Shown here: piece by piece, positions 1 to 64,000 of the stretch
Layout of the letters: the number at the start of each line of letters is the position of its first letter
Numbering within the stretch: position 1 is the stretch's first letter
From: Anaerosacchariphilus polymeriproducens
Lineage (GTDB): Bacteria > Bacillota > Clostridia > Lachnospirales > Lachnospiraceae
Length of the DNA: 64,000 nt
Reading direction: 5' to 3'
Assembly: GCF_003363435.1 (NCBI RefSeq)
Contig: NZ_QRCT01000049.1
Location: forward strand, 357,403 to 421,402
Notes under the pieces: model-generated
What the model was told of the DNA's origin: nothing
Database searches by the model: none
Seen by the model: only the letters and a program-made list of their open reading frames with translations
Translations under genes and position numbers: made by a program

Positions 1-205
1 TATAATACGCAAGCGTTCTATCTGAACAACCTTCAATACGTTTTGCCGCTAAAAATAGCCTCATATAATCTTGATTATCCAAATTTTCTACATCATCATT
101 ATTTTCTTCCAAACGCTTTAATAATACCTCTTGTAAGCGTTTCATTTGAGAAATATTTAAGCTCTCTGACATGTCATTTAGAATATTATAAATTTGACTT
201 TTCAT
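1..205 (-). CDS. Tyrosine site-specific recombinase (phage-integrase family), N-terminal 68 codons only; rest lies beyond window start
   Basis: Minus-strand ATG at 205..203 preceded by AAGGAGTG SD. Open frame to position 1 reads MKSQIYNILNDMSESLNISQMKRLQEVLLKRLEENNDDVENLDNQDYMRLFLAAKRIEGCSDRTLAYY. The G-x-S-x-RTL-x-Y motif is typical of the SAM-like N-terminal domain of XerC/D-like integrases. Not in ORF track because truncated. Confidence 0.55.
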   Translation of the reverse strand, partial: MKSQIYNILNDMSESLNISQMKRLQEVLLKRLEENNDDVENLDNQDYMRLFLAAKRIEGCSDRTLAYY

Positions 206-244
206 ATTGATACACTCCTTGTTTTTAAGAAGTATATCAATTTT

Positions 245-1393
245 TTATCCAAAATAATTTTGCATTAATGAATCAAATAATATTTTTGTCTCATCTAAAG
301 ACTTTTGAACATTAACTTTCAATTTGTCGACTTGTTGGACGAAAGAAACGAATTCGTTTTGAAGTTCAATTGCAGGCACAGGAATCTCAAATTCCTTGAT
401 CATTCCAAGATTTAAATTTTTCTGACGAATTCCTCTTCTATTATTCAAAAAATGTTCTTTCATATGTAAAAGATTAAAATATAACCAAACAATATTTATA
501 TTTTCGTTTGGCATAATATTTGCACAAGCTTGATTTGATGCACTATCTTTCTCCAAAATACCCATCTTAAAAGCAGCAGTATCATACATTCCAACTAACA
601 TACTCCCCTTATTGAATATTTTCGCAGAACTTTCCTCAACGGCTTCTCGTGTTATTTTTTCAACTGATTCTTTCAAATATAATTCGTTTAATTCTCCTGC
701 TGAATACCAATTAATATCTCCATTAAAATAATATTTATTTGCTCTAGATGGTGTACCACCACTTTTCCATAGTCCCAATTCTTGAAGTTGTTTAATTTCC
801 CAATTCTTATTATTTGATATAGTGTCCCCAAACATCTCGACAAATCGGGATTTGATAAGGTCATCAAGGAGTTTCAACTGCTCTTTTCTGTGATTTAATA
901 TTCCTCTAATCGAATCCAAAATTTCAACTATTTCAGTTTGTTTTTCTAGTGTAATGTTTGGTATTAAAACATTTTTAATGTCATTTTTACTAACTGCTGG
1001 ATAACTTGCCCCTGTTGCAACATTCATTAGTTCATTAATGAAATATTTGGACTGACAAAAGTAAAATAAATACCTACTATCCACCTTATCATTACCTCTT
1101 AGCACGCAAAATCCTGTTGATCCAACTAATGTATTTTCCGAATCAATATCACATAAAGCAATTGCATTAAGGTTAGGTCTTACAGTCGACACTAGAACAT
1201 CATTCTTCTCAAGCATTTGTTTTGCTCTGCTAGGCGCCTCTAATATACTAAATGTATTAAAACCAGTGATTTTTTTTGTAACGTTATCAACTGATGAAAT
1301 GTCTATATAATCAATATCATAGTCGCCCTGTGCAGAAACATTGTCAATCTTATCCACACAGAACTTTCCAAGTCTTATCTTCTCCATATTCAC
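245..1393 (-). CDS. hsdS: Type I restriction-modification specificity subunit HsdS (two target-recognition domains)
   Basis: 382 aa. Two TRD-like halves are separated by a conserved central helix (LEKQTEIVEILDSI...LLDDLIKSRFVEMFG) and a similar C-terminal helix (ELQNEFVSFVQQVDKL...). It lies immediately downstream of hsdM with a 2-bp gap. Confidence 0.85.
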   Translation of the reverse strand: MNMEKIRLGKFCVDKIDNVSAQGDYDIDYIDISSVDNVTKKITGFNTFSILEAPSRAKQMLEKNDVLVSTVRPNLNAIALCDIDSENTLVGSTGFCVLRGNDKVDSRYLFYFCQSKYFINELMNVATGASYPAVSKNDIKNVLIPNITLEKQTEIVEILDSIRGILNHRKEQLKLLDDLIKSRFVEMFGDTISNNKNWEIKQLQELGLWKSGGTPSRANKYYFNGDINWYSAGELNELYLKESVEKITREAVEESSAKIFNKGSMLVGMYDTAAFKMGILEKDSASNQACANIMPNENINIVWLYFNLLHMKEHFLNNRRGIRQKNLNLGMIKEFEIPVPAIELQNEFVSFVQQVDKLKVNVQKSLDETKILFDSLMQNYFG

Positions 1394-1395
1394 CC

Positions 1396-2862
1396 CTACA
1401 AATCTAAATCTAATAATTTCATCAATTCATCTTTCAAAGTTACAATTTCCCCATCAATCTTGTTAATTCTTTCCATAATAACATTCGGGGGATCATATTC
1501 CACTCTTTCATACTCAATTTCCTTATATTTATTAATAGACAAATCATACCCATTGTTTTTGATTTCCTCTACCGGAACAAAGAAACTCTGCTCGGTTCGT
1601 TTCCTATCATTTTCATTCTCTAAATGATTGAATCTTTCTATAATATCAGGAATATCATTTGCTTCAATGGCTTGTCTCTTATCATCTAAGCTATATCCAT
1701 CTGCCTTCATGTCGTAGAACCAAACCTTGTCTGTTCCGCCTGCTCCTGTCTTTGTAAAGATAAGAATCGCGGTAGAAACGCCGGCATATGGCTTGAAAAC
1801 TCCGGAAGGCATGGAGATAACTGCATCTAATTTATTATTATTTACAATTTCCTGCCGAATCTGCTGATGAGCCTTGGAACTTCCGAAAAGAACTCCGTCC
1901 GGTACGATAGTCGCACTTCTTCCGCCATTTTTTAACACCCTAAGATTAAGAGCCAAGAACAATAATTCTGTTTTCTTAGTCTTGGTAACTTTTAATAAAT
2001 CTGCACTTACTGCTTCGTAGTCTAAACTGCCTTTAAAAGGCGGATTCGCTAATACAAGTGTGTATTTTACATGATCGGTATTTTGCTCTGATAAGCTATC
2101 CTTGTATTCGATTTTAGGATTCTCTACCCCGTGAAGCATCATATTCATAGCCCCGATACGCAGCATTGTCCTATCCATATCAAAACCATGGAACATATCG
2201 TTGTTAAAATGTTCTCTCAACCCTGCATTCAAAAATAAATCCGCATGATTCGTTCTTAAATAGTTCTGTGATGCTACTAAAAATCCCGCACTTCCCATGG
2301 CTGGATCTACGATTACATCGCTTGGAGTCGGTTTCATTAACTGAACCATCATGTCAATGATATGTCTTGGTGTTCGAAACTGTCCGTTCGTTCCTGCTGT
2401 TGAAACTTTTGAAAGAAGATACTCATACAAATCACCTTTTGCATCTGTATCAACTAGAACTAAACTGTCAATTCCATCTACTATCTTGGATAGCATGGCT
2501 GGTGTAGGGATTTTGAAAATGGCATCTCCCATATACTTCGAATAAGCAGAGTCACCATCCTGATGTAGGTTTTTAATAAATGGGAATACCCCATCTAAAA
2601 CTATTTTGTATATTTCCTCTGCAGAACCTAAACTCTTAAATTTATTCCAACGATACTGCTGACATTCTTCTGGAAATATCCCAACATACGGTACTCCCAG
2701 GAAGTTCGCTTCACTCTCTTTTGTAGATTCTACTTCATCTAATTGTTTGATAAATAATAAATATGTAAATTGTTCTATTACTTCTAACGGATTCGTAATT
2801 CCTCCTGTCCAAAACGTCTCCCAAATTCGGTCAATTTTATTTTTCATCTCTCCTGTAATCAT
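1396..2862 (-). CDS. hsdM: Type I restriction-modification N6-adenine DNA methyltransferase HsdM
   Basis: 488 aa. Carries the N6_Mtase NPPF motif (VLANPPFKGSLD) and the SAM-binding region (VDPAMGSAGFLV), with HsdM N-terminal domain features. Confidence 0.9.
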   Translation of the reverse strand: MITGEMKNKIDRIWETFWTGGITNPLEVIEQFTYLLFIKQLDEVESTKESEANFLGVPYVGIFPEECQQYRWNKFKSLGSAEEIYKIVLDGVFPFIKNLHQDGDSAYSKYMGDAIFKIPTPAMLSKIVDGIDSLVLVDTDAKGDLYEYLLSKVSTAGTNGQFRTPRHIIDMMVQLMKPTPSDVIVDPAMGSAGFLVASQNYLRTNHADLFLNAGLREHFNNDMFHGFDMDRTMLRIGAMNMMLHGVENPKIEYKDSLSEQNTDHVKYTLVLANPPFKGSLDYEAVSADLLKVTKTKKTELLFLALNLRVLKNGGRSATIVPDGVLFGSSKAHQQIRQEIVNNNKLDAVISMPSGVFKPYAGVSTAILIFTKTGAGGTDKVWFYDMKADGYSLDDKRQAIEANDIPDIIERFNHLENENDRKRTEQSFFVPVEEIKNNGYDLSINKYKEIEYERVEYDPPNVIMERINKIDGEIVTLKDELMKLLDLDL

Positions 2863-2980
2863 TTTCTTCGCTCCTTAAATATAATGAAATAATTATAGCA
2901 AACGCAAATAATTATTACTACAAAATATAACAAAGTTTTTATATTTAGATTATACTATCTGAAAACAAAGCTACTTTTTA

Positions 2981-5242
2981 TCAATCCGAAGTATAATAAT
3001 AAACGATTATCTCCTGCACATTCTTAGGATAAATAAACACCTCATAAAAAGTACCGGATTTACTTATCTTTTCAACTATTTTAATTCCTTTTTCTAGCCC
3101 CTCTTTTGTAAGCATCGTTTTTCCAAAACCTTCTATCTGCTTTTCTTTTAAAAGCCCCTCTTTAAACAGAAACTCGAGAATACTCTTGTTCGTAACCTGT
3201 TTCGTGGTCAGTGGATCGCGCAGATTATTCAGTTCCTCTTTTATCTCCGTTATATAATATTTGTCAGCATAGGTAAAGTTTTGGGCTTGTTCTGAAGTAA
3301 GATGAAATTCTTCTTTTCTATTCCGCTTACTAACAGGCTTCTCTTCCTTCGCCAAATCTTTAACATCCTCTTGCGCTTCGGATTCCAAACTTATGACACG
3401 TCCAGGATTCTCAGAGGTAAACTGCTCTATTTCAGAAATAAAACGTTGACCATATTTCTCATATTTATTTTCACCCACACCAGAGACCTGAAGCATTTCC
3501 ATCTTTGTATGCGGAGTTCTTACACACATATCAATTAAAGTCTTATCACTGAAAATGATATACGGAGGCATTTTCTCTTCCCTTGCAATTTCAAGTCTAA
3601 GCTGGCGAAGTTTTTCAAATAATTCAAATCCAGCAGATGTAAGTGCATCCGTACTCTTTTGTCTGGTTTTATTCGTATTACTGCTTATCGTATCCTTCTC
3701 TTCAATATGTACCTTAACTGTTACCTTTGTCGATTCATCATGAAGTCTTGCTACCATATTTCCTATTTTAAGAAGACTATATTTATCATCTGTCTGATTC
3801 AAATATCCTTCCTGAATCATTTGAGTAATCAGTAACTTCAGCATTGATTCAGTACTATCCTTAAGAACGCCATAGGACTTATACTCCATGGTTCCAAATT
3901 CTTTCAACTTCGCTCTTCTTGCACCAAGAAGCGTACCAACAACAACATTTAATCCATATCTTCCTTTGGTCTCTGTGACACAGTTAATAATCCACTTGGC
4001 TTCCTTGGTCATGTCAATCTCTGTAAATTCCTTTTTACAATTGGCGCAATCTCCACAAGGTTGATTTGTCTTTTCTCCAAAATATTGAAGAATGAAATTT
4101 CTAAGACAGTTTGTCGTGTGACAGTAGTTTTCCATAACATGAAGTCTTTGCACATCCCTCTGCCGTATCAACTCTGCATCCTCAAAATCAATATCAGAAA
4201 GTTCCTTATTATCCAAAAGAAATTTATTTATCATGATATCCTGAGCAGAAAATAGCAAAATACATTGCGCATCTTCCCCATCTCTCCCTGCTCTTCCGGC
4301 TTCCTGATAATAATTTTCCATGCTCTGCGGCATATTATAATGAATGACAAATCGGACATTAGACTTATCAATTCCCATGCCAAAAGCATTTGTCGCTACA
4401 ATGATTGGACTTCTATCATAAATAAAAGCATCCTGATTATCTTTTCTTGCCTCAGAATTTAATCCAGCATGATACTTTGTTACACAAACTCCATTTTTGA
4501 ACAAAAGCTCATGCATTTTTTCTACATTCTTTCTCGTAGCACAATAAATAATACCGCTATCATTTGAATGCTCCTTAATATAATTTAAAATGAAGTTATC
4601 TTTTCTACTAATATTTTCCACCTGATAATAGAGGTTTTCCCTGTCAAATCCTGTTACCAAAACATTTGGACTTTTTAGACCTAAAATACATACAATGTCC
4701 TCTTTTACTTCTTTTGTAGCTGTTGCTGTAAATGCACTTATGATTGGTCGATATGAAAGAAAATTTACAAAATCAATAATCTTTAAGTAACTTGGCCTAA
4801 AATCTTGTCCCCATTGCGAAATGCAATGTGCTTCATCTATTGTAATCATAGAAATCTCGGTATTAGATGCAAACCATCTAAATTCGTTGCTCTCAAGACG
4901 TTCCGGTGCAACATAGATTATTTTGTACAGCCCTTGTGATGCATATTGGAGTGCTTTTGAAATTTGTACATCGGTAAGGGAACTATTAATAAAAGCAGCA
5001 TGGATTCCAGCTTCATTTAATGCCTTTACCTGATCTTGCATAAGAGAAATTAATGGCGAAATGACAAGAGTGATTCCTGGCAGCATTAAAGCCGGAACTT
5101 GGTAACAAATAGATTTTCCTGCTCCTGTCGGCATAATTGCCAGCGCATCTCTTTCTTCTAAAATAGTATCTATCATTTCTCTCTGACCGGCTCGAAATAA
5201 ATCGTAACCAAAATATTTTTTTAAAATTTCTAATGGATTCAT
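2981..5242 (-). CDS. recQ: ATP-dependent DNA helicase RecQ (with roughly 150-aa C-terminal extension)
   Basis: 753 aa. Walker A (MPTGAGKS), DEAH box (TIDEAHCISQWGQDFR), helicase C motifs, RQC Zn-binding cysteines (CGDCANC) and an HRDC-like region, then an uncharacterised lysine-rich tail. Confidence 0.9.
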   Translation of the reverse strand: MNPLEILKKYFGYDLFRAGQREMIDTILEERDALAIMPTGAGKSICYQVPALMLPGITLVISPLISLMQDQVKALNEAGIHAAFINSSLTDVQISKALQYASQGLYKIIYVAPERLESNEFRWFASNTEISMITIDEAHCISQWGQDFRPSYLKIIDFVNFLSYRPIISAFTATATKEVKEDIVCILGLKSPNVLVTGFDRENLYYQVENISRKDNFILNYIKEHSNDSGIIYCATRKNVEKMHELLFKNGVCVTKYHAGLNSEARKDNQDAFIYDRSPIIVATNAFGMGIDKSNVRFVIHYNMPQSMENYYQEAGRAGRDGEDAQCILLFSAQDIMINKFLLDNKELSDIDFEDAELIRQRDVQRLHVMENYCHTTNCLRNFILQYFGEKTNQPCGDCANCKKEFTEIDMTKEAKWIINCVTETKGRYGLNVVVGTLLGARRAKLKEFGTMEYKSYGVLKDSTESMLKLLITQMIQEGYLNQTDDKYSLLKIGNMVARLHDESTKVTVKVHIEEKDTISSNTNKTRQKSTDALTSAGFELFEKLRQLRLEIAREEKMPPYIIFSDKTLIDMCVRTPHTKMEMLQVSGVGENKYEKYGQRFISEIEQFTSENPGRVISLESEAQEDVKDLAKEEKPVSKRNRKEEFHLTSEQAQNFTYADKYYITEIKEELNNLRDPLTTKQVTNKSILEFLFKEGLLKEKQIEGFGKTMLTKEGLEKGIKIVEKISKSGTFYEVFIYPKNVQEIIVYYYTSD

Positions 5243-7738: not shown

Positions 7739-8410
7739 TCAATCTTTCCCTTCATAAAGCAAGATTGAAGTACCTACCATACCGGCTGATATCACTAAAG
7801 GTATTAGAAGGTATGCCCCTTTTTTATCTAAATAAAAATATGGAAAAAAGCATTTCGCATTATTCCATATTGAACTAGATGAATAGACCGTCCACTTTCC
7901 CACCAAGAAAATAATAATACCTAAAATAATTTCAACAAAACTACTTATCATAGATTTACTCGTACATGATGAAATCAAAAATTTAAAACTTATGAAATAA
8001 GTGATAATAACGATACTGTGATAGTAATTTGATAGGTAATATTTCCCCTCAAGCATCGAAATAGTAATATTAACAGCGGTGAGACAACTGTACCAAAATA
8101 ACAGTGTTCCAGTATATATACCTAAGAAAACTCTTCTGCCGGAATAATTCATTTTATAGATAGAAACCGTACTTAAATCACTTTCTTTATGGATGGCATC
8201 ATGAGATAACACAGATACAAAAAAAAATCCCCCTGCGGTAACTAAAAATCTAAAACTTGAATACAAAGAATTATCTTCTATACCAAAACCTCGATATTTA
8301 AAAGATAAGTTTCTTATAAGATAACTAAATAAAACAAAAATCAGAACAATAGCAATAGCTTTCATTTTCTTCAAAAGATTCATATACTCTTCTTTCAAAA
8401 TAGCTAACAT
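7739..8410 (-). CDS. Integral membrane protein of unknown function
   Basis: 223 aa with about 6 hydrophobic segments. No recognised motif. Confidence 0.45.
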   Translation of the reverse strand: MLAILKEEYMNLLKKMKAIAIVLIFVLFSYLIRNLSFKYRGFGIEDNSLYSSFRFLVTAGGFFFVSVLSHDAIHKESDLSTVSIYKMNYSGRRVFLGIYTGTLLFWYSCLTAVNITISMLEGKYYLSNYYHSIVIITYFISFKFLISSCTSKSMISSFVEIILGIIIFLVGKWTVYSSSSIWNNAKCFFPYFYLDKKGAYLLIPLVISAGMVGTSILLYEGKD

Positions 8411-8650
8411 ACAAATACTCCTTCTCGTTCTATTATTTATTAATATCTTTTGTGCTTAATTGCTTACACAAACAATAATTTCTAGAACTGTAAGAATGCA
8501 AGTATAAGAATAGGATTTAAACTACTTCTTGTTCTTTTAAAAATTAAATTGTAAATTGGGGATTACTTTAAGATTTTTATTAAATTAGAAATTTTTATAA
8601 GGTTTGAGATATCTATTTTCGGTAGCATTACTTTAACATATTAAAATCGA

Positions 8651-56797: not shown

Positions 56798-56970
56798 ATA
56801 ATTTCTCCTTTCATTTTGGGAATTCCTTATGGAACAACTTTATCTTATCAAGCTTATATGGCAGTTTCGTGGCACTGATAAATTATATTTTTGTCGTTTT
56901 AAGTTATCATGCCATTCATTTGCCATGTTTATTTGATATGCTATATAATAAAACAAAAGGAGGTCTTGTT

Positions 56971-57657
56971 ATGAATACTGTTTTAATTGCTGACGATAAT
57001 CCACAGCTTTTAAATATTTTAAAAACTGCAGCAGAAAAAGAAGGATATGGTATCATACTTGCCGAGGACGGACAAGCAGCTTTGGAAGCATTTCATAATC
57101 ATCGGCCACAAATAATCCTATTGGATGTTATGATGCCAAAGTTGGATGGTTTTCAGGTTTGTCGTGAAATACGTAAGGAGTCGAATGTTCCTATTATTAT
57201 GATTACCGCACGAGGCGAGGACTTTGAAAAAATCATGGGACTAGAAATAGGTGCAGATGATTACATCGTTAAACCATTTTCACCTGGTGAAGTGATGGCA
57301 CGTATAAAAGCGGTGATGCGCCGTATTCAAAAAAGCGAGAACGTAAGTGAGCAAGTTCTGTTAATAGAGGATTTACGTATCAATCTTGCCGATTATAGTG
57401 TATATATCGCATCAAAACCTATTCCACTAACCAAACGGGAAATTGACATGCTCTGGACTCTTGTTAATGGCAGAAATCGTGCCTATACCCGTGATATGCT
57501 TCTTGACTTGTTATGGGGATATGATTATTATGGTGACCCACGCACGGTAGATTCTCATATGAAGCGGTTGCGTGCCAAGCTGGATGTGATTGAGCACCCC
57601 ACTTGGGAAATTCGCACAGTGCGAAATGTTGGATATAAGTTCGAGGTGACTACATGA
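56971..57657 (+). CDS. OmpR-family response regulator (REC + winged-helix)
   Basis: True start MNTVLIADDNPQ at 56971 with an AAAGGAGG SD. The ORF-track start at 56869 adds an unsupported extension. Phospho-Asp in LLDVMMP and C-terminal trans_reg_C domain. Confidence 0.85.
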   Translation: MNTVLIADDNPQLLNILKTAAEKEGYGIILAEDGQAALEAFHNHRPQIILLDVMMPKLDGFQVCREIRKESNVPIIMITARGEDFEKIMGLEIGADDYIVKPFSPGEVMARIKAVMRRIQKSENVSEQVLLIEDLRINLADYSVYIASKPIPLTKREIDMLWTLVNGRNRAYTRDMLLDLLWGYDYYGDPRTVDSHMKRLRAKLDVIEHPTWEIRTVRNVGYKFEVTT

Positions 57658-59084
57658 AAAATAAAATCCTTATGAAGTTGGTGGCGGCCTTTGCTGTTGT
57701 CATGCTATTATTCTCCATAGTATTAGGAAGCGTATTTCTAATTTTATTTCGTAACCATACGATAACCATAAATCGCACAACAATGGAGCAAAAGGCCGTT
57801 TCTATTGCATCTACACTATCATCCTTTCAAGAAGGTAATAGAGGATATGGTGCATATTTGCGATTTTTAGATGAATTGGCGATGGCTGAAGTTTGGATTG
57901 TGGACGAACATCTCAATATCTCCGTTCATGGTCACGGTATGCACTCTGCAAACTATCAAAAGCTTCCCGAAAATGCAGAAGAGATTGTATCCAGAGTTTT
58001 TTCCGGAGAGCTGACATATGGGGAAGAATTTTCGGATTTACTGGGAACAAATGCATTGACAGTAGGTGCGCCAATCCTTGATGGAGAGCGTGTTATTGGT
58101 GCTGTTTTGCTGCATTCACCAATCAGTGGCATCAATGCAGCGGTAGAGCAAGGTATTTTAGCACTCATCATTGGTATAGGCGTAGCCCTTATTTTCGCAG
58201 GAATTGCAGCGGCACTTCTTTCTTATCGCTTTACCCGTCCTTTAGCACAGATGAAAACAACCGCACTGGAACTTGCGGATGGGAACTATGTTGCCCAAAC
58301 AGGTGTCTGTCAGCAGGACGAAATCGGTCAGCTTGCAAGTGTTTTGGATACCCTTGCGCTACGATTGCAGTCAGCAGAAGCTGAGCAGGAAAAGCTGAAT
58401 CGCCTGAGAGAAAATTTTGTTGCAAATGTGTCTCACGAATTGCGCACTCCAGTAGCAGTTCTTCGTGGTTCTCTCGAACTTTTGCAGGATGGGACCGTAA
58501 ACAAGCCTGAGGAAATTTCCGATTATTATGACCAAATGCTGTCAGAGAGCAACCATTTAGAACGTTTAGTCAACGACTTGCTAGATTTATCACGTTTACA
58601 GGATGAGGGTTTTCATCTTACAATTTCGGAAGTAAATCTTTGCGATGTGGTACAAGATGCTACTCGTGCGATCCGCCGCACAGCGCTGATCAAAAATATT
58701 ACGGTTGCAGTTGAAGTCCCTGATACAGAATGTCTTGTCATGGGAGACTATGACCGAATTCGTCAACTGCTTCTGATTTTACTTGATAATGCTGTGAAAT
58801 TTTCAGTAGAACAGGGATTAATTCAAGTAAATCTGACAAAGAAAGATGGTTTTGTCCTCACTGTAACCGATCATGGAATTGGCATTTCACCAGAAGATAT
58901 TCCCTACATCTTTGACCGCTTCCATAAAACTCATGCAAAGGAAAACAAAAATGGTACGGGATTAGGCCTTGCTATTGCCAACGAGATTGCAAAGAGACAT
59001 AAGGCGTCTATTCATGTGGAAAGTAACGAGACGGAAACTACTTTCTACCTATTTTTACCCGAAACAGCTCCTCTTATAAAATAA
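57654..59084 (+). CDS. Sensor histidine kinase (2 TM + HAMP + HisKA + HATPase_c)
   Basis: 476 aa. H-box NVSHELRTPVAVL, and N, G1 and G2 boxes (GTGLGLAIANEI). Its start overlaps the response-regulator stop by 4 nt. Confidence 0.85.
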   Translation: MKNKILMKLVAAFAVVMLLFSIVLGSVFLILFRNHTITINRTTMEQKAVSIASTLSSFQEGNRGYGAYLRFLDELAMAEVWIVDEHLNISVHGHGMHSANYQKLPENAEEIVSRVFSGELTYGEEFSDLLGTNALTVGAPILDGERVIGAVLLHSPISGINAAVEQGILALIIGIGVALIFAGIAAALLSYRFTRPLAQMKTTALELADGNYVAQTGVCQQDEIGQLASVLDTLALRLQSAEAEQEKLNRLRENFVANVSHELRTPVAVLRGSLELLQDGTVNKPEEISDYYDQMLSESNHLERLVNDLLDLSRLQDEGFHLTISEVNLCDVVQDATRAIRRTALIKNITVAVEVPDTECLVMGDYDRIRQLLLILLDNAVKFSVEQGLIQVNLTKKDGFVLTVTDHGIGISPEDIPYIFDRFHKTHAKENKNGTGLGLAIANEIAKRHKASIHVESNETETTFYLFLPETAPLIK

Positions 59085-59343: not shown

Positions 59344-60585
59344 TTATTTATTACTATCCAAAATACCAATTTTGTTACCAGAAAATAATACAACTACAAT
59401 AAGAATAACACATATATTGTTTATAATATAAGTATTATCTGCTTGGATATGTAAAGACAAATACCCAGAATAACTAATCCCCATAGGAACAAACAAACTC
59501 GAGAAGAACGATAATAAAGCAAAAAATCTTCCTTGGAATTTCAATGGTACCTTTGTTTGTAAATATGAACCTAAAGGCACATTTATACAGGTTGTAATCA
59601 TTCCAATGAAAAACTGTAAAATGATAAAAAAACAAAAAAAGACTTTATTCGAAAAAGAATATAAAGTAATTGATAGAACAGCGGTTATAATCATAAAAAA
59701 ACTATTTGCAATAAACAATCCTTTCAGATGACTTTTTAAATCTATAATTTTATTCTTAAAAATAAATAGTCCCGCAATTAGAGAACCAAATACCGCAGAA
59801 GTAGAAGACAACCCATAGTATTTATCAGAAATATTGTATTTTTGGATAAGGATACCAGGATTAATAATTTCATCGTTATTAGCAATAAAAAAATTTAAGC
59901 TCATGATGATAATAAATAAATAGAGAATATTTTTTTGCTTATAAACAAACTGCATCCCGGACAATAACTGTTTACTGAATTTTTCACCTTTTTCATGAAT
60001 CCTTTTCTCTTTTGCTTTATATATGATAAAACATTCTTGAATTGCGGATAATAAATAAGTTAATGCAATAATTAAAAGCACTCTTTGAAAACCCAGAAAT
60101 TCATATAAATAAGTACCTAATACTGGTGCTATTAATGCAGATCCGTTATCCCAGAAACTTCGAATCCCATTATACTTTTCTATGGTGTTTTCTGTGCTGA
60201 TTTCTGTAAAAATTACCTTTGATGATATTTCAAATATTTTTGACAATAGATTAATAATCATAGACACAATCAATAATATAATAATATCACTCTTCTTTCT
60301 ATTATACGAAAGAAAAAGTATTATATACAAGAGTGTCGTCATAAAATCACAGAATACAATAATATATTTTCTATTTAATTTTTCAACAACAACCCCAAAA
60401 AAGGGTGTACATATTATAGCCGGAATATTTACAACAGCAAAAAAAATACCTGAACTTTTCAAGCTTCCCGTCAAACCAAGAACATGTAACGGTAAAATGA
60501 TTAAAAACATTGTTGAACCAAACATAGAAATTGTTCGTCCAAACAATAATAAAATCATATTTCTTTCATTTTTAATATTGTTCAT
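59344..60585 (-). CDS. MFS transporter
   Basis: 413 aa with 12 TM segments. N-terminal LLFGRTISMFGSTMF is typical of MFS_1. Confidence 0.75.
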   Translation of the reverse strand: MNNIKNERNMILLLFGRTISMFGSTMFLIILPLHVLGLTGSLKSSGIFFAVVNIPAIICTPFFGVVVEKLNRKYIIVFCDFMTTLLYIILFLSYNRKKSDIIILLIVSMIINLLSKIFEISSKVIFTEISTENTIEKYNGIRSFWDNGSALIAPVLGTYLYEFLGFQRVLLIIALTYLLSAIQECFIIYKAKEKRIHEKGEKFSKQLLSGMQFVYKQKNILYLFIIIMSLNFFIANNDEIINPGILIQKYNISDKYYGLSSTSAVFGSLIAGLFIFKNKIIDLKSHLKGLFIANSFFMIITAVLSITLYSFSNKVFFCFFIILQFFIGMITTCINVPLGSYLQTKVPLKFQGRFFALLSFFSSLFVPMGISYSGYLSLHIQADNTYIINNICVILIVVVLFSGNKIGILDSNK

Positions 60586-61022: not shown

Positions 61023-61487
61023 TTATTTTAGTATTTCTAAAATCAGATTATCAACCCATACTTCAAAATTATGTTTTGACATGATATATAGTCCTTCCCT
61101 AATATGACTCTTTTCTACAACCATTACTTCATTTGTTGTTCTTTCTTCTTCTGCAAATGAGGTTAAAATAATTTTAATATTCGAAATCCCTTCACTATCC
61201 ACCATTTTGTATGCAGTCTCTATAAATTGATTTATCAGTATAGGCGGCTTATCTAGCTGTTCCCAATCTTCGAATTCTCCCATAAAATTGTCGAATTTCA
61301 ACTCAATAAAATAGCGGGCACTATAGTCTTTAAAGTATTGCCGCTTGATAGGTTTTACCTCATCACCGGAAATAACTATAAATCCTAATGCCTGAAACGA
61401 ACTTAGCATATTATTAAGTTTTTCTTCAGAAGCACTTGAGTCAAATGTTATAAATTGAGTGCAATCGAAATTACCTACCATTCTCAT
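61023..61487 (-). CDS. Putative immunity protein for the orphan toxin tip
   Basis: 154 aa cytosolic acidic protein. It starts 6 nt after the stop of the orphan toxin cassette, the typical toxin-immunity arrangement. Confidence 0.5.
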   Translation of the reverse strand: MRMVGNFDCTQFITFDSSASEEKLNNMLSSFQALGFIVISGDEVKPIKRQYFKDYSARYFIELKFDNFMGEFEDWEQLDKPPILINQFIETAYKMVDSEGISNIKIILTSFAEEERTTNEVMVVEKSHIREGLYIMSKHNFEVWVDNLILEILK

Positions 61488-61492
61488 TCCTC

Positions 61493-62455
61493 CTACTGTC
61501 TATACTTTCCATTAAATAAATAATCATAAAGTTGTTTTATATCAAGTTTTGTTGGTGATGTAACTCCTCCATTTGCTGTTTTTGACCCTGTAGATCCATA
61601 AATATTTCCATTTGGAGCAACATTTCTTGTTGGCTGGTGAACGTGTGGTGCCAAACCACCGTGTTCCTCTGCTCCAAATCTTTTAAATTGCCCCCCTACA
61701 TCTCCTTTATTATTATTAAAACCGCTTGATTTAGTGTATAACCCTACTTCTGCATCGGGAGAAATGTTGTTCTTCATGAATCCTTCTAATGTTCTTTCAC
61801 CAGGTTGTGGCTTGTAGCCTTTATTTGTAATCCAGTCAGTGTTAACCCCTCCCTTATTCGCAAAATACTGCAAATCATAAGAAAGGCGATTCCCAGTTCC
61901 ACCGGCCTGATTTCCTAGCTCAAATTTATTCTTACTAAGTGCCTCTTTCAGTGAGGTATTCTTTCCAACTCCGGTAAAGTCTGCCTGAAGCATCTTTCGA
62001 AGGCTTTTCCCACTGGATACCAGGCCTTTGCCGCTAAGTCCTACTCCCAGTCTGTCTGCCAGTATTGAGAATACACTTTCTGCGCTGATACTTCCTGTTT
62101 TTTTATATTCCTTGATGGCATTTGTGACATCATGCTTTAAGTTCACTGCACTGACTGTGAAGCTGCCGGTATAGGATACCACTTCTGATATCTTTTCAAT
62201 ATATTTTGCGGTCTTGGCTGCTTTATTAAAAAACTTCGATGCCTTGAATCCCAGACGAATTCCGGAACCTACCACGGAACCTATAAATGGCAGAGCTGAC
62301 ATAGCACTTAGTGTTGCCATTTCTTCATTGCCTTCTAACAAGTACCAGCCTGCATTTATTACATCTACTACATCTCCAACCCCCGGTATAAACCCTATAA
62401 CATCTAGTACCGTATGTCCTATTGAACTAAAGCTTCCGTTGTTTTGCGGGCACAA
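61493..62455 (-). CDS. Orphan polymorphic-toxin C-terminal cassette: partial PT-TG pre-toxin domain + conserved linker + alternative toxin tip (no ATG start)
   Basis: 320-codon ORF. It begins at a TTG inside an open frame without SD. It contains the PT-TG motif (VLDVIGFIPGVGDVVDVINAGWY). Its middle 130 residues are about 90% identical to the upstream toxin gene, then the C-terminus diverges (GVNTDWITNKGYKPQP...EEHGGLAPHVHQP...). Confidence 0.55.
   Translation of the reverse strand: MCPQNNGSFSSIGHTVLDVIGFIPGVGDVVDVINAGWYLLEGNEEMATLSAMSALPFIGSVVGSGIRLGFKASKFFNKAAKTAKYIEKISEVVSYTGSFTVSAVNLKHDVTNAIKEYKKTGSISAESVFSILADRLGVGLSGKGLVSSGKSLRKMLQADFTGVGKNTSLKEALSKNKFELGNQAGGTGNRLSYDLQYFANKGGVNTDWITNKGYKPQPGERTLEGFMKNNISPDAEVGLYTKSSGFNNNKGDVGGQFKRFGAEEHGGLAPHVHQPTRNVAPNGNIYGSTGSKTANGGVTSPTKLDIKQLYDYLFNGKYRQ
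61850..62250. repeat. Recombination repeat, copy A (about 95% identical to 63596..64000)
   Basis: Direct comparison of the two stretches shows near-identity over at least 400 bp with scattered SNPs. Identity starts exactly where the toxin tips diverge. Copy A probably extends further right toward 62455. Confidence 0.85.
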
Positions 62456-62915
62456 TCCAAATGGATCGGTATAACGGATTGGATTGCCCTGTACATAGCA
62501 GTAACGGTTCAGACTTTGGCTGTTTTCAATACTGCCGGTCAGAATATCTTAATTGATAAACCTTCTAATACCTGTATTATAATACCTTGCACGCATATAA
62601 TACAAGCCATTTGTATCTGTACATAAACAAAAAATACCGTTGTAATTGAAGTATCGGCTTTTCATTTACAACGATATTTTCTTTAACTTTTAGCTTAAAA
62701 AGGGGATAATGTGGTAAAGGATTTAGAAAGTATTTTTTAGTTTCATCAACTAGTATTTTCTTTTTAAATTTATCTGCCACTTTTCCCCCTATTCACTGCA
62801 TTATTAGATTTATGCAGCGTTAACTCTTCATATTTTTATTGATTTATCTGAGTTCTACTCTTATTATTTTTTATGCAGTTACTAACTTACTTTTTATACA
62901 TCTAAATTGTAGTAC

Positions 62916-63257
62916 CTATTCTTCAATTTCCTCTACATATTGTAAAAATAAATCTTGTAACTCATTATCAGTATCAACATTATCTAAATATAATTTAGGT
63001 TCAGCATCACATCCACTAAGTGTACTACTTCCATCAATTATACCTAGTATATGTGAAATAGTATCTATAATGACTAGTTCTATAAAATCAATCAATGCAT
63101 CCTTCTTTTCTTCTGATACATTATTATATATTTCTAAAACTTGTTTTAGATATTCATCTTTTACCTTATCAATATTTGAATTATCTAGTTGACTCCTATA
63201 TAGTTCCTTGTCTTTGACAATAGTTTCGTAAAGACTTTTAATAAAAATTTCATTCAT
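62916..63257 (-). CDS. Putative immunity protein for the AHH-nuclease toxin tip
   Basis: 113 aa, highly acidic. It starts 2 nt after the toxin stop. Confidence 0.5.
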   Translation of the reverse strand: MNEIFIKSLYETIVKDKELYRSQLDNSNIDKVKDEYLKQVLEIYNNVSEEKKDALIDFIELVIIDTISHILGIIDGSSTLSGCDAEPKLYLDNVDTDNELQDLFLQYVEEIEE

Positions 63258-63258
63258 T

Positions 63259-64000
63259 TTACTTCCTCATTTCTGGATATAATTTTTTATTCATTTCAAT
63301 TAACTCTTGTAATTTTGAATTTGGAATATCGGGGTAAACTCTTCTTAATTCCCTTATATCTCTTGCAAGTAGTTGTCTTGCATTAGTTATTCCTTTTGTA
63401 CTTCTTGATACTATACCTCTTTCAAAATGCTTTCTTGTGTGTCCTACTTCTGGAACATTTATTGCTGGTGCAGTCATTGGGTCATAACCATCGACTAATT
63501 TCTTCATTGCAGCTTTTTGCCCCGCATGGTGTGCGTCAAGACCTTCTACTCCCTTTATATCTTTATAAGCACCAACTTGATATTTAGCTTCACTTACTCC
63601 CTTACTCGCAAAATACTGCAAATCATAAGAAAGGCGATTCCCAGTTCCCCCAGCCTGATTTCCTAGCCCAAATTTATTCTTACTAAGTTTCTCTTTCAGT
63701 GAAGTATTCTTTCCAACTCCGGTAAAGTCTGACTGAAGCATCTTTCGAAGGCTTTTCCCACTGGATACCAGGCCTTTACCGCTAAGTCCTACTCCCAGTC
63801 CGTCTGCCAGTATTGAGAATACACTTTCTGCGCTGATACTTCCTGTTGCTTTGTATTCCTTGATGGCATTTGTGACATCATGCTTTAAGTTCACTGCACT
63901 GACTGTGAAGCTGCCGGTATAGGATACTACTTCTGATATCTTTTCGATATATTTTGCGGTCTTGGCTGCTTTATTAAAAAACTTCGATGCCTTGAATCCC
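63259..64000 (-). CDS. 3' end of a large polymorphic toxin gene: conserved pre-toxin linker + C-terminal AHH-family HNH/EndoVII nuclease domain (5' part beyond window)
   Basis: The frame is open to the window edge: upstream of the GTG at 63894 it reads ...GFKASKFFNKAAKTAKYIEKISEVVSYTGSFTVSAVNLKHD.... The C-terminal tip contains LDAHHAGQKAAM (AHH motif) and a downstream conserved His (EVGHTRKH). Confidence 0.65.
   Translation of the reverse strand, partial: GFKASKFFNKAAKTAKYIEKISEVVSYTGSFTVSAVNLKHDVTNAIKEYKATGSISAESVFSILADGLGVGLSGKGLVSSGKSLRKMLQSDFTGVGKNTSLKEKLSKNKFGLGNQAGGTGNRLSYDLQYFASKGVSEAKYQVGAYKDIKGVEGLDAHHAGQKAAMKKLVDGYDPMTAPAINVPEVGHTRKHFERGIVSRSTKGITNARQLLARDIRELRRVYPDIPNSKLQELIEMNKKLYPEMRK
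63596..64000. repeat. Recombination repeat, copy B (within the full-length toxin gene)
   Basis: See copy A. Truncated by the window end. Confidence 0.85.

Follow-up and report, generated by a model that had tools for sequence, protein, structure and literature searches.

In Salmonella Typhimurium LT2, recombination with the main gene turns a silent rhs orphan into an expressed one, as has been found experimentally (Koskiniemi et al. 2014, PMC3967940), and orphan cdiA-CT/rhs-CT modules have been described more widely among bacteria (Poole et al. 2011, PMC3150448). In these systems, the toxin end of a gene and its immunity gene are followed by a 5'-truncated fragment that is homologous to the region in front of the toxin tip, has no initiation or export signals, brings an immunity gene of its own, and forms with the main gene a direct repeat suited to recombination. 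The same layout is found at the end of a stretch of 64,000 nucleotides (nt) from the Lachnospiraceae member Anaerosacchariphilus polymeriproducens (contig NZ_QRCT01000049.1), which is here called the window and whose positions serve as coordinates throughout. The region 61023-64000 very probably forms the 3' portion of a polymorphic toxin locus of the Rhs type, in which a toxin/immunity pair is followed by an orphan cassette, a degree of confidence that applies to the architecture of the locus only and does not cover the enzymatic activities of the toxins.

The locus differs from its model in some respects. Salmonella uses a type VI secretion system (T6SS), whereas the host considered here is a Gram-positive-type anaerobe, and the delivery therefore cannot be by T6SS. 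The homology between the two copies is here not confined to the Rhs core, as it also takes in the pre-toxin module and linker, about 200 amino acids (aa) that follow the DPFGL motif, and recombinants have been shown in Salmonella while none has been observed at this locus.

Architecture of the locus

All features of the toxin locus are encoded on the minus strand. In the layout that explains the data best, the protein of the upstream toxin gene would end with a pre-toxin module, a linker of 134 aa, and a basic toxin domain, tip 1. The immunity gene imm1 lies directly 3' of tip 1, and about 1.75 kb downstream there is a start-less orphan fragment that contains the same linker with a different tip, tip 2, followed by the immunity gene imm2. 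The imm1 product corresponds to WP_115483065.1 / RDU22655.1 and the orphan open reading frame (ORF) of 320 aa to WP_115483063.1, both from A. polymeriproducens and both at 100% identity. An earlier note on this DNA had recognized a toxin tip and its immunity gene as a polymorphic toxin locus and had described, downstream of it, a start-less orphan tip/immunity cassette. Both descriptions hold, as an imm1 homolog is found 3' of tip 1 in 20 of 20 loci, and as the orphan is a 5'-truncated fragment for which annotators chose two different TTG starts. Also the positions given in that note are right, with small corrections such as those of the gaps, to 1 nt instead of 2 between the toxin stop and imm1, and to 5 nt instead of 6 between the orphan stop and imm2.

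The mechanically derived orphan ORF (61493-62455, minus strand, 320 aa) begins with TTG, and in-frame homology extends upstream of it to about position 62653, beyond what had been recognized before. This extension is the end of an Rhs-associated core that reads ...TDTNGLYYMRARYYNTGIRRFIN*DILTGS...NRYCYVQGNPIRYTDPFGL, includes GLYYMRARYY and NPIRYTDPFGL, and scores 56.1 bits with the NCBIfam model TIGR03696 (cut-off 32.5). It is broken by an in-frame TAA at 62549-62551. An Rhs core that ends in a PxxxxDPxGL-type motif in front of a variable C-terminus is thus found in the orphan and likewise in a paralog, P0001, which is described below. Because the orphan fragment retains this core end, the delivery scaffold can be assigned to the Rhs type, which had been left open between LXG, RHS and others, and Rhs/YD repeat arrays are found in related tip-1 proteins (3266 aa in L001, 2706 aa in P0194).

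In both cassettes, a variable tip has a gene directly 3' of it that is predicted to neutralize it, and the orphan is 5'-truncated, shares the region in front of the tip, has no start or export signals, and is accompanied by its own immunity gene. The GenBank product of the orphan has 282 aa (P0002) and begins at another TTG than the 320-aa product in RefSeq, which illustrates that there is no genuine start, and because such a start and the export part are both missing, the orphan toxin is expected to be silent. The ribosome-binding site AGGAGGA of imm2 overlaps the orphan stop. Both tips are basic, with isoelectric points (pI) of 9.8 for tip 1 and 9.4 for tip 2, and both immunity proteins are acidic (imm1 4.1, imm2 4.7). 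The GC content of tips and immunity genes is 0.25-0.37 versus 0.43 in the linker, which fits imported cassettes, and a reduced GC content is typical for displaced rhs tips.

The direct repeat and the common junction

The two linker copies, A in the upstream gene and B in the orphan, are direct repeats with a start-to-start spacing of 1748 nt. They align ungapped over 404 nt with 15 mismatches (96.3% nt identity, longest identical run 74 nt), and their translations are identical at 128 of 134 positions (95.5%); the codon changes between them are synonymous in 7 cases and non-synonymous in 6. Such a repeat is far beyond chance, and because the window end cuts copy A, the shared stretch is probably longer than 404 nt. 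The identity drops off at 63596 and 61848, respectively, which is the tip junction. A repeat of about 400 bp that ends exactly there (61850..62250 versus 63596..64000) had been reported in the earlier note and is confirmed by the realignment, as is the shared linker of about 130 aa, the identity of which had been put at about 90% and is measured as about 96%.

The linker occurs once more in the same assembly, on a contig of 4,321 nt that encodes the partial 'RHS repeat-associated core domain-containing protein' P0001 (RDU23581.1). The core end of P0001 is intact and has a Gln where the orphan core has its stop, and the linker is identical to that of the upstream gene at 133 of 134 positions. 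At the same junction, directly after ...YFASKGV, the protein changes to a third tip, which includes ...LTPHHMPSAEYMKNNG... There are thus three different tips at one junction within one genome, which strengthens the idea of a modular exchange and argues that this exchange is recurrent. Over 102 columns, tip 3 can be aligned colinearly to the profile of tip 1 (HH, R..LA.D....R..Y; E 0.008), and it may be a distant relative of tip 1 within a wider superfamily.

Table 1. Features of the toxin locus in the 64,000-nt window
Feature	Position	Strand	Description
imm2	61023..61487	-	putative tip-2 immunity protein of 154 aa (pI 4.7); begins 5 nt past the stop of the orphan
Tip 2 and stop	61493..61848	-	basic domain of ~118 aa; conserved FKRFG...H...HVHQP.RN
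Repeat copy B	61849..62252	-	orphan linker; 404 nt, matches copy A
Pre-toxin module	62234..62452	-	~70 residues after DPFGL; H..LD..GFIPG.G..D..NA..Y..EG....A.LS...A.P..G
Rhs-associated core remnant	62453..62653	-	last ~65 codons, ends with DPFGL (62453-62467); TIGR03696
AT-rich spacer	62654..62915		between imm1 and orphan; GC 0.27; no homology to the Rhs protein P0001
imm1	62916..63257	-	putative tip-1 immunity protein of 113 aa (pI 4.1); begins 1 nt past the tip-1 stop
Upstream toxin gene, 3' end	63259..64000	-	247 codons and stop; frame open from TAA 63259-63261 to the window end
Tip 1	63262..63596	-	C-terminal toxin domain of ~112 aa; motifs DAHH-GQK (LDAHHAGQK), GHT, VSR, R..LARD..ELRR.Y
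Repeat copy A	63597..64000	-	linker of 134 aa, pI 9.9; just upstream of tip 1; cut by the window end

Tip 2 and imm2

The search for relatives of tip 2 gave 59 sequences, all of them short proteins or fragments, from Clostridium, Streptococcus, Bacillus, Lysinibacillus, Photorhabdus, and metagenomes. In 26 of the 60 family members there is a sub-threshold match to Ntox24 (PF15529), which lies on the conserved His core and reaches an E value of 0.0012 at best; the window tip itself scores 12.2 bits, the gathering score being 24 bits. Ntox24 is an all-beta domain with conserved Y, H, and H that has been predicted to be a metal-independent RNase on Rhs and HINT toxins (Zhang et al. 2012, PMC3482391). 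Tip 2 seems to resemble it in the mostly beta core, the conserved His, and the Rhs and HINT carriers, but the partners are unlike, as Ntox24 is combined with Imm50 or Imm53, whereas imm2 has no Pfam match. Tip 2 may be put forward, with due reserve, as an Ntox24-like nuclease. It had been stated earlier that tip 2 did not match any recognized toxin fold, and with regard to structures this stands, while by sequence the tip now appears as a sub-threshold relative of Ntox24.

A homolog of imm2 (39-49% identical) lies directly 3' of tip 2 in four of six distinct contexts and across phyla. One of these is Photorhabdus temperata, where tip 2 is preceded by an Rhs core remnant and directly followed by the imm2 homolog. 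The remaining two contexts have an unrelated protein of about 90 aa at this place: in Streptococcus azizii (L021, 2031-2291) and in one metagenomic lineage (L023, 8632-8919), a protein of 86-95 aa replaces the imm2 homolog. The motif DT..Y.VME.LDGY ... IQLHD of these small proteins superficially resembles IDTIS..LG.IDGSS ... ELQD of imm1. A relationship to imm1 was considered and rejected, as hhalign gave only an E value of 0.11 over 27 columns, which is not significant. The metagenomic orphan array L023 also has a tip-2 copy (8001-8621) with an internal stop (FK*LG), and some copies are therefore decaying.

Exchange of tips and its alternatives

The arrangement suggests how the locus could work. 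The cell would be protected from tip 1 by the acidic imm1 encoded 1 nt downstream, and imm2, which has a good ribosome-binding site of its own, would still protect it against neighbours that deploy tip 2. As the repeats are direct, homologous recombination between them could join the Rhs body to tip 2 and imm2; the usable stretch would measure at least 404 nt and, counted from the nonsense codon in the 3' direction, probably about 700 nt. The crossover would need to lie between about 61849 and 62548, on the 3' side of the nonsense codon. If it occurred as a deletion, 1748 bp would be lost, whereas an unequal sister-chromatid exchange would retain both cassettes and duplicate the region. DPFGL is the site where Rhs cores self-cleave, which frees the C-terminal region, and it would play that role also in the delivered protein of this locus. 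The suggestion of the earlier note that the repeat could mediate tip exchange has thus gained weight, as the geometry is suitable and as P0001 carries a third tip at the identical junction.

Several points weigh against this picture. Only 247 codons of the upstream gene lie inside the window, and its body is beyond base 64000. No protein that contains its 246 window residues is present in a set of 5.8 billion clusters, in which the neighbours are found, and this could mean that the gene was called a pseudogene, that it received no annotation, or that it is itself a further 5'-truncated fragment. A tip-switched or fused variant was not found in any database searched, the linker is absent from all other genomes and metagenomes searched, and a metagenome scan with the pre-toxin module and linker together gave no match. 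In the promoter and terminator scan, the locus was at background level. As to tip 2, the scores of all 26 of the 60 family members with Ntox24 matches are below the Pfam cut-off, and the structure model has no structural match in the Protein Data Bank (PDB).

The orphan fragment could also be no more than a decaying remnant of an earlier tip displacement that has ceased to serve as a recombination substrate, with imm2 alone being kept, against foreign tip-2 toxins. Such a decay would agree with the nonsense codon in the core remnant, the lack of a start, for which GenBank and RefSeq pick two different TTG codons, and the fact that in each of the six contexts sampled, tip 2 is part of a short cassette in an orphan or immunity array, with the internal stop in the L023 copy, but it would not agree well with a frame that stays intact over the 320 codons from the nonsense codon to the end of tip 2, with a linker that is kept at 96% nt identity and shows 7 synonymous against 6 non-synonymous changes, and with a junction that is exactly the same for three tips in one genome, which argues for recurrent exchange. 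It is thus rather unlikely that the fragment is a mere relic.

Somewhat less likely again is it that both cassettes are orphans, with a 5'-truncated or degraded tip-1 cassette and a functional main rhs gene elsewhere, for example beside the 4.3-kb contig that encodes tip 3. The frame of the upstream gene is open over all 247 codons up to the window edge, and there is one orphan-type break, consisting of spacer and core remnant, which lies downstream as expected 3' of a main gene. Carrier-less tip-1 fragments are indeed common elsewhere, as in L018, L019, L020, and L027 with their short or tip-only ORFs, and the protein set lacks the product of the upstream gene, yet holds the adjacent imm1 and orphan proteins; this absence could equally well come from a pseudogene call, brought about by an assembly or frameshift problem within a long repetitive gene. 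The arrangement of a main gene with a downstream orphan cassette is preferred.

Tip 1 and imm1

Judged by its relatives, tip 1 is a genuine toxin tip. Over its last ~112 residues it is 70-92% identical to more than 100 proteins at their C-termini; these belong to Bacillus and related genera, clostridia, and Lachnospiraceae, and some have N-terminal Rhs repeats, PT-HINT, WXG100+PT-TG, LXG, or DUF4280. A profile search of 1.84 billion representatives (clusters at 50% identity) gave 690 clusters with E<=1e-3, 216 of which had E<=1e-30. The domain invariably sits at the C-terminus of proteins that measure 92-3714 aa, and its carriers are Rhs proteins of 2,700-3,700 aa, LXG+PT-TG, WXG100+PT-TG, PT-HINT, DUF4280, and Hcp proteins, among them the 3266-aa Rhs protein of Clostridium hydrogeniformans (L001), the 2706-aa Rhs protein P0194, and an LXG+PT-TG protein. 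In P0229 (343 aa), an Hcp (TssD) domain, the GFIP pre-toxin module, and tip 1 make up one fusion protein, and in some bacteria tip 1 is therefore found also on a T6SS carrier. Conserved positions of the tip are D25, A26, H27, H28, G30, Q31, K32, G56, H57, T58, S68, R69, R78, R83, D84, and E87, of which H27 and H28 are nearly invariant and H57 is invariant in the family. In Pfam and NCBIfam, tip 1 has no family match.

In the 20 tip-1 loci returned by a scan of a reference-genome collection, the source genome not being among them, an imm1 homolog (30-65% identical) begins 4-5 nt after tip 1 without exception, including a locus of a gammaproteobacterium (L017). Such a conserved order, with a basic tip and an acidic partner, is characteristic of a dedicated toxin/immunity pair, in which imm1 would neutralize tip 1. 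The imm1 protein WP_115483065.1 is named 'transposase' by NCBI, a name without Pfam or NCBIfam support, which seems to be an annotation error and may have been passed on to related proteins.

The AlphaFold model of tip 1 is confident (predicted local distance difference test score 92, predicted template modelling score 0.84) and has three strands and five helices, and its sole putative structural relative is TseN. This protein, a DNase that belongs to the T6SS of Acidovorax citrulli (PDB 9J9W), has an essential His254, and its fold of a three-stranded sheet with helices was described by its authors in 2025 as being without relatives (PMC12574953). The link between tip 1 and TseN is moderate in strength, with 17% sequence identity, and the chances that tip 1 is a nuclease of the TseN class are about even. 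Foldseek did not reach TseN from tip 1, as it gave nothing significant against the PDB, and TseN was not reached by sequence among the best 150 of the 690 profile matches. Tip 1, its profile, tip 2, and tip 3 gave only chance-level 14-3-3 matches or none with PDB sequences. The two toxins differ also in their carriers, which are FIX-motif and VgrG-PAAR proteins for TseN and Rhs, LXG, HINT, and Hcp proteins for tip 1, and in their immunity proteins, as TsiN, the immunity protein of TseN, has an alpha/beta structure whose sheet consists of seven strands (PMC12574953), whereas imm1 is an acidic protein of 113 aa with no detected relation to TsiN.

That tip 1 would be an AHH-type HNH nuclease, as proposed in the earlier note, can be regarded as highly improbable, because beyond the common tripeptide AHH with a conserved His 29 residues further on, and a noise-level Tox-SHH match of one in 50 family members (E 0.25), little agrees with the published family, which has the signature [AG]HH, N, H, H, Y and an HNH/EndoVII fold (PMC3482391): Tox-AHH (PF14412) matches none of the 50 family members and not the window tip at E<=1, hhalign finds no relation to a true AHH toxin (17 C-terminal columns only), the signature Asn is not conserved, with N or L at position 51, and the model has a helix and not a hairpin after HH, so that AHH is refuted at the level of family membership. 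The true AHH toxin used for this comparison is encoded in a metagenomic array of orphan cassettes (L027; ENA ERZ27303370 k141_2066989, 1-4093), in which a TNT-domain toxin with a small ORF is followed by a tip-only tip 1 with imm1 (91% identical) and then by the AHH toxin with a DUF4274 protein.

The pre-toxin module

Other Rhs, Hcp, and HINT carriers of tip 1 likewise have, in front of this tip, the module that lies here between DPFGL and the linker; a profile search with this GFIP module gave 18 short fragments, which were uninformative. It had been taken for a PT-TG motif in the earlier note, and the orphan protein is named 'Pre-toxin TG domain-containing' in UniProt, a name that a search with PF14449 fails to reproduce. 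The hidden Markov model of PT-TG matches none of 15 module sequences and neither of two annotated proteins at E<=10, and hhalign of the module with true PT-TG segments gives a probability of 38% over the 34 C-terminal columns only, which means that the C-terminal halves are weakly alike. The label PT-TG is thus unsupported. Sub-threshold matches of the module are to DUF4112 (6 of 15) and to the diphtheria toxin T domain (3 of 15, in the C-terminal part of the translocation domain), which hints at a role in membrane entry.

A more far-reaching reading would combine these aspects. Within the TseN class of DNases, tip 1 would then be the principal branch, pan-bacterial in its distribution and occurring in Firmicutes and some Proteobacteria on Rhs, type VII secretion system (LXG/WXG), HINT, and Hcp carriers and with an immunity family of its own, and the GFIP module of about 70 aa would, together with the linker after DPFGL, constitute an undescribed membrane-entry (translocation) domain distinct from PT-TG. 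This combination is doubtful, and clearly more so than the assignment of tip 1 to the TseN class taken by itself.

Neighbouring genes

Directly on the 3' side of the toxin locus there is a very AT-rich ORF of 413 aa (59344-60585, minus strand; GC content about 0.27), which by its hydrophobicity may encode a membrane transporter. Beyond it lies a pair of ORFs on the plus strand (56869-59084) with a GC content of 0.40-0.47, the 476-aa member of which (57654-59084) reads like a sensor kinase, and this pair may be a two-component system. The composition shifts sharply between the neighbouring ORFs at 56869-59084 and 59344-60585.

Implications

The locus is most probably an ordinary Rhs main/orphan toxin locus, for which the labels AHH and PT-TG are wrong or unproven, and as its architecture is the published main/orphan rhs arrangement, it opens no new question in this respect. 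With three tips at one junction in a single genome of the Gram-positive type, it is however convenient for measuring tip switching by polymerase chain reaction or long reads. Tip 1 and imm1 are a very large and strongly conserved pair, with 690 clusters for the toxin domain and tips that are often 70-90% identical between distant genera, and this pair has no model in Pfam or NCBIfam. If the link to TseN is true, a class of DNases known from experiment would grow by hundreds of proteins and acquire several further ways of being delivered.

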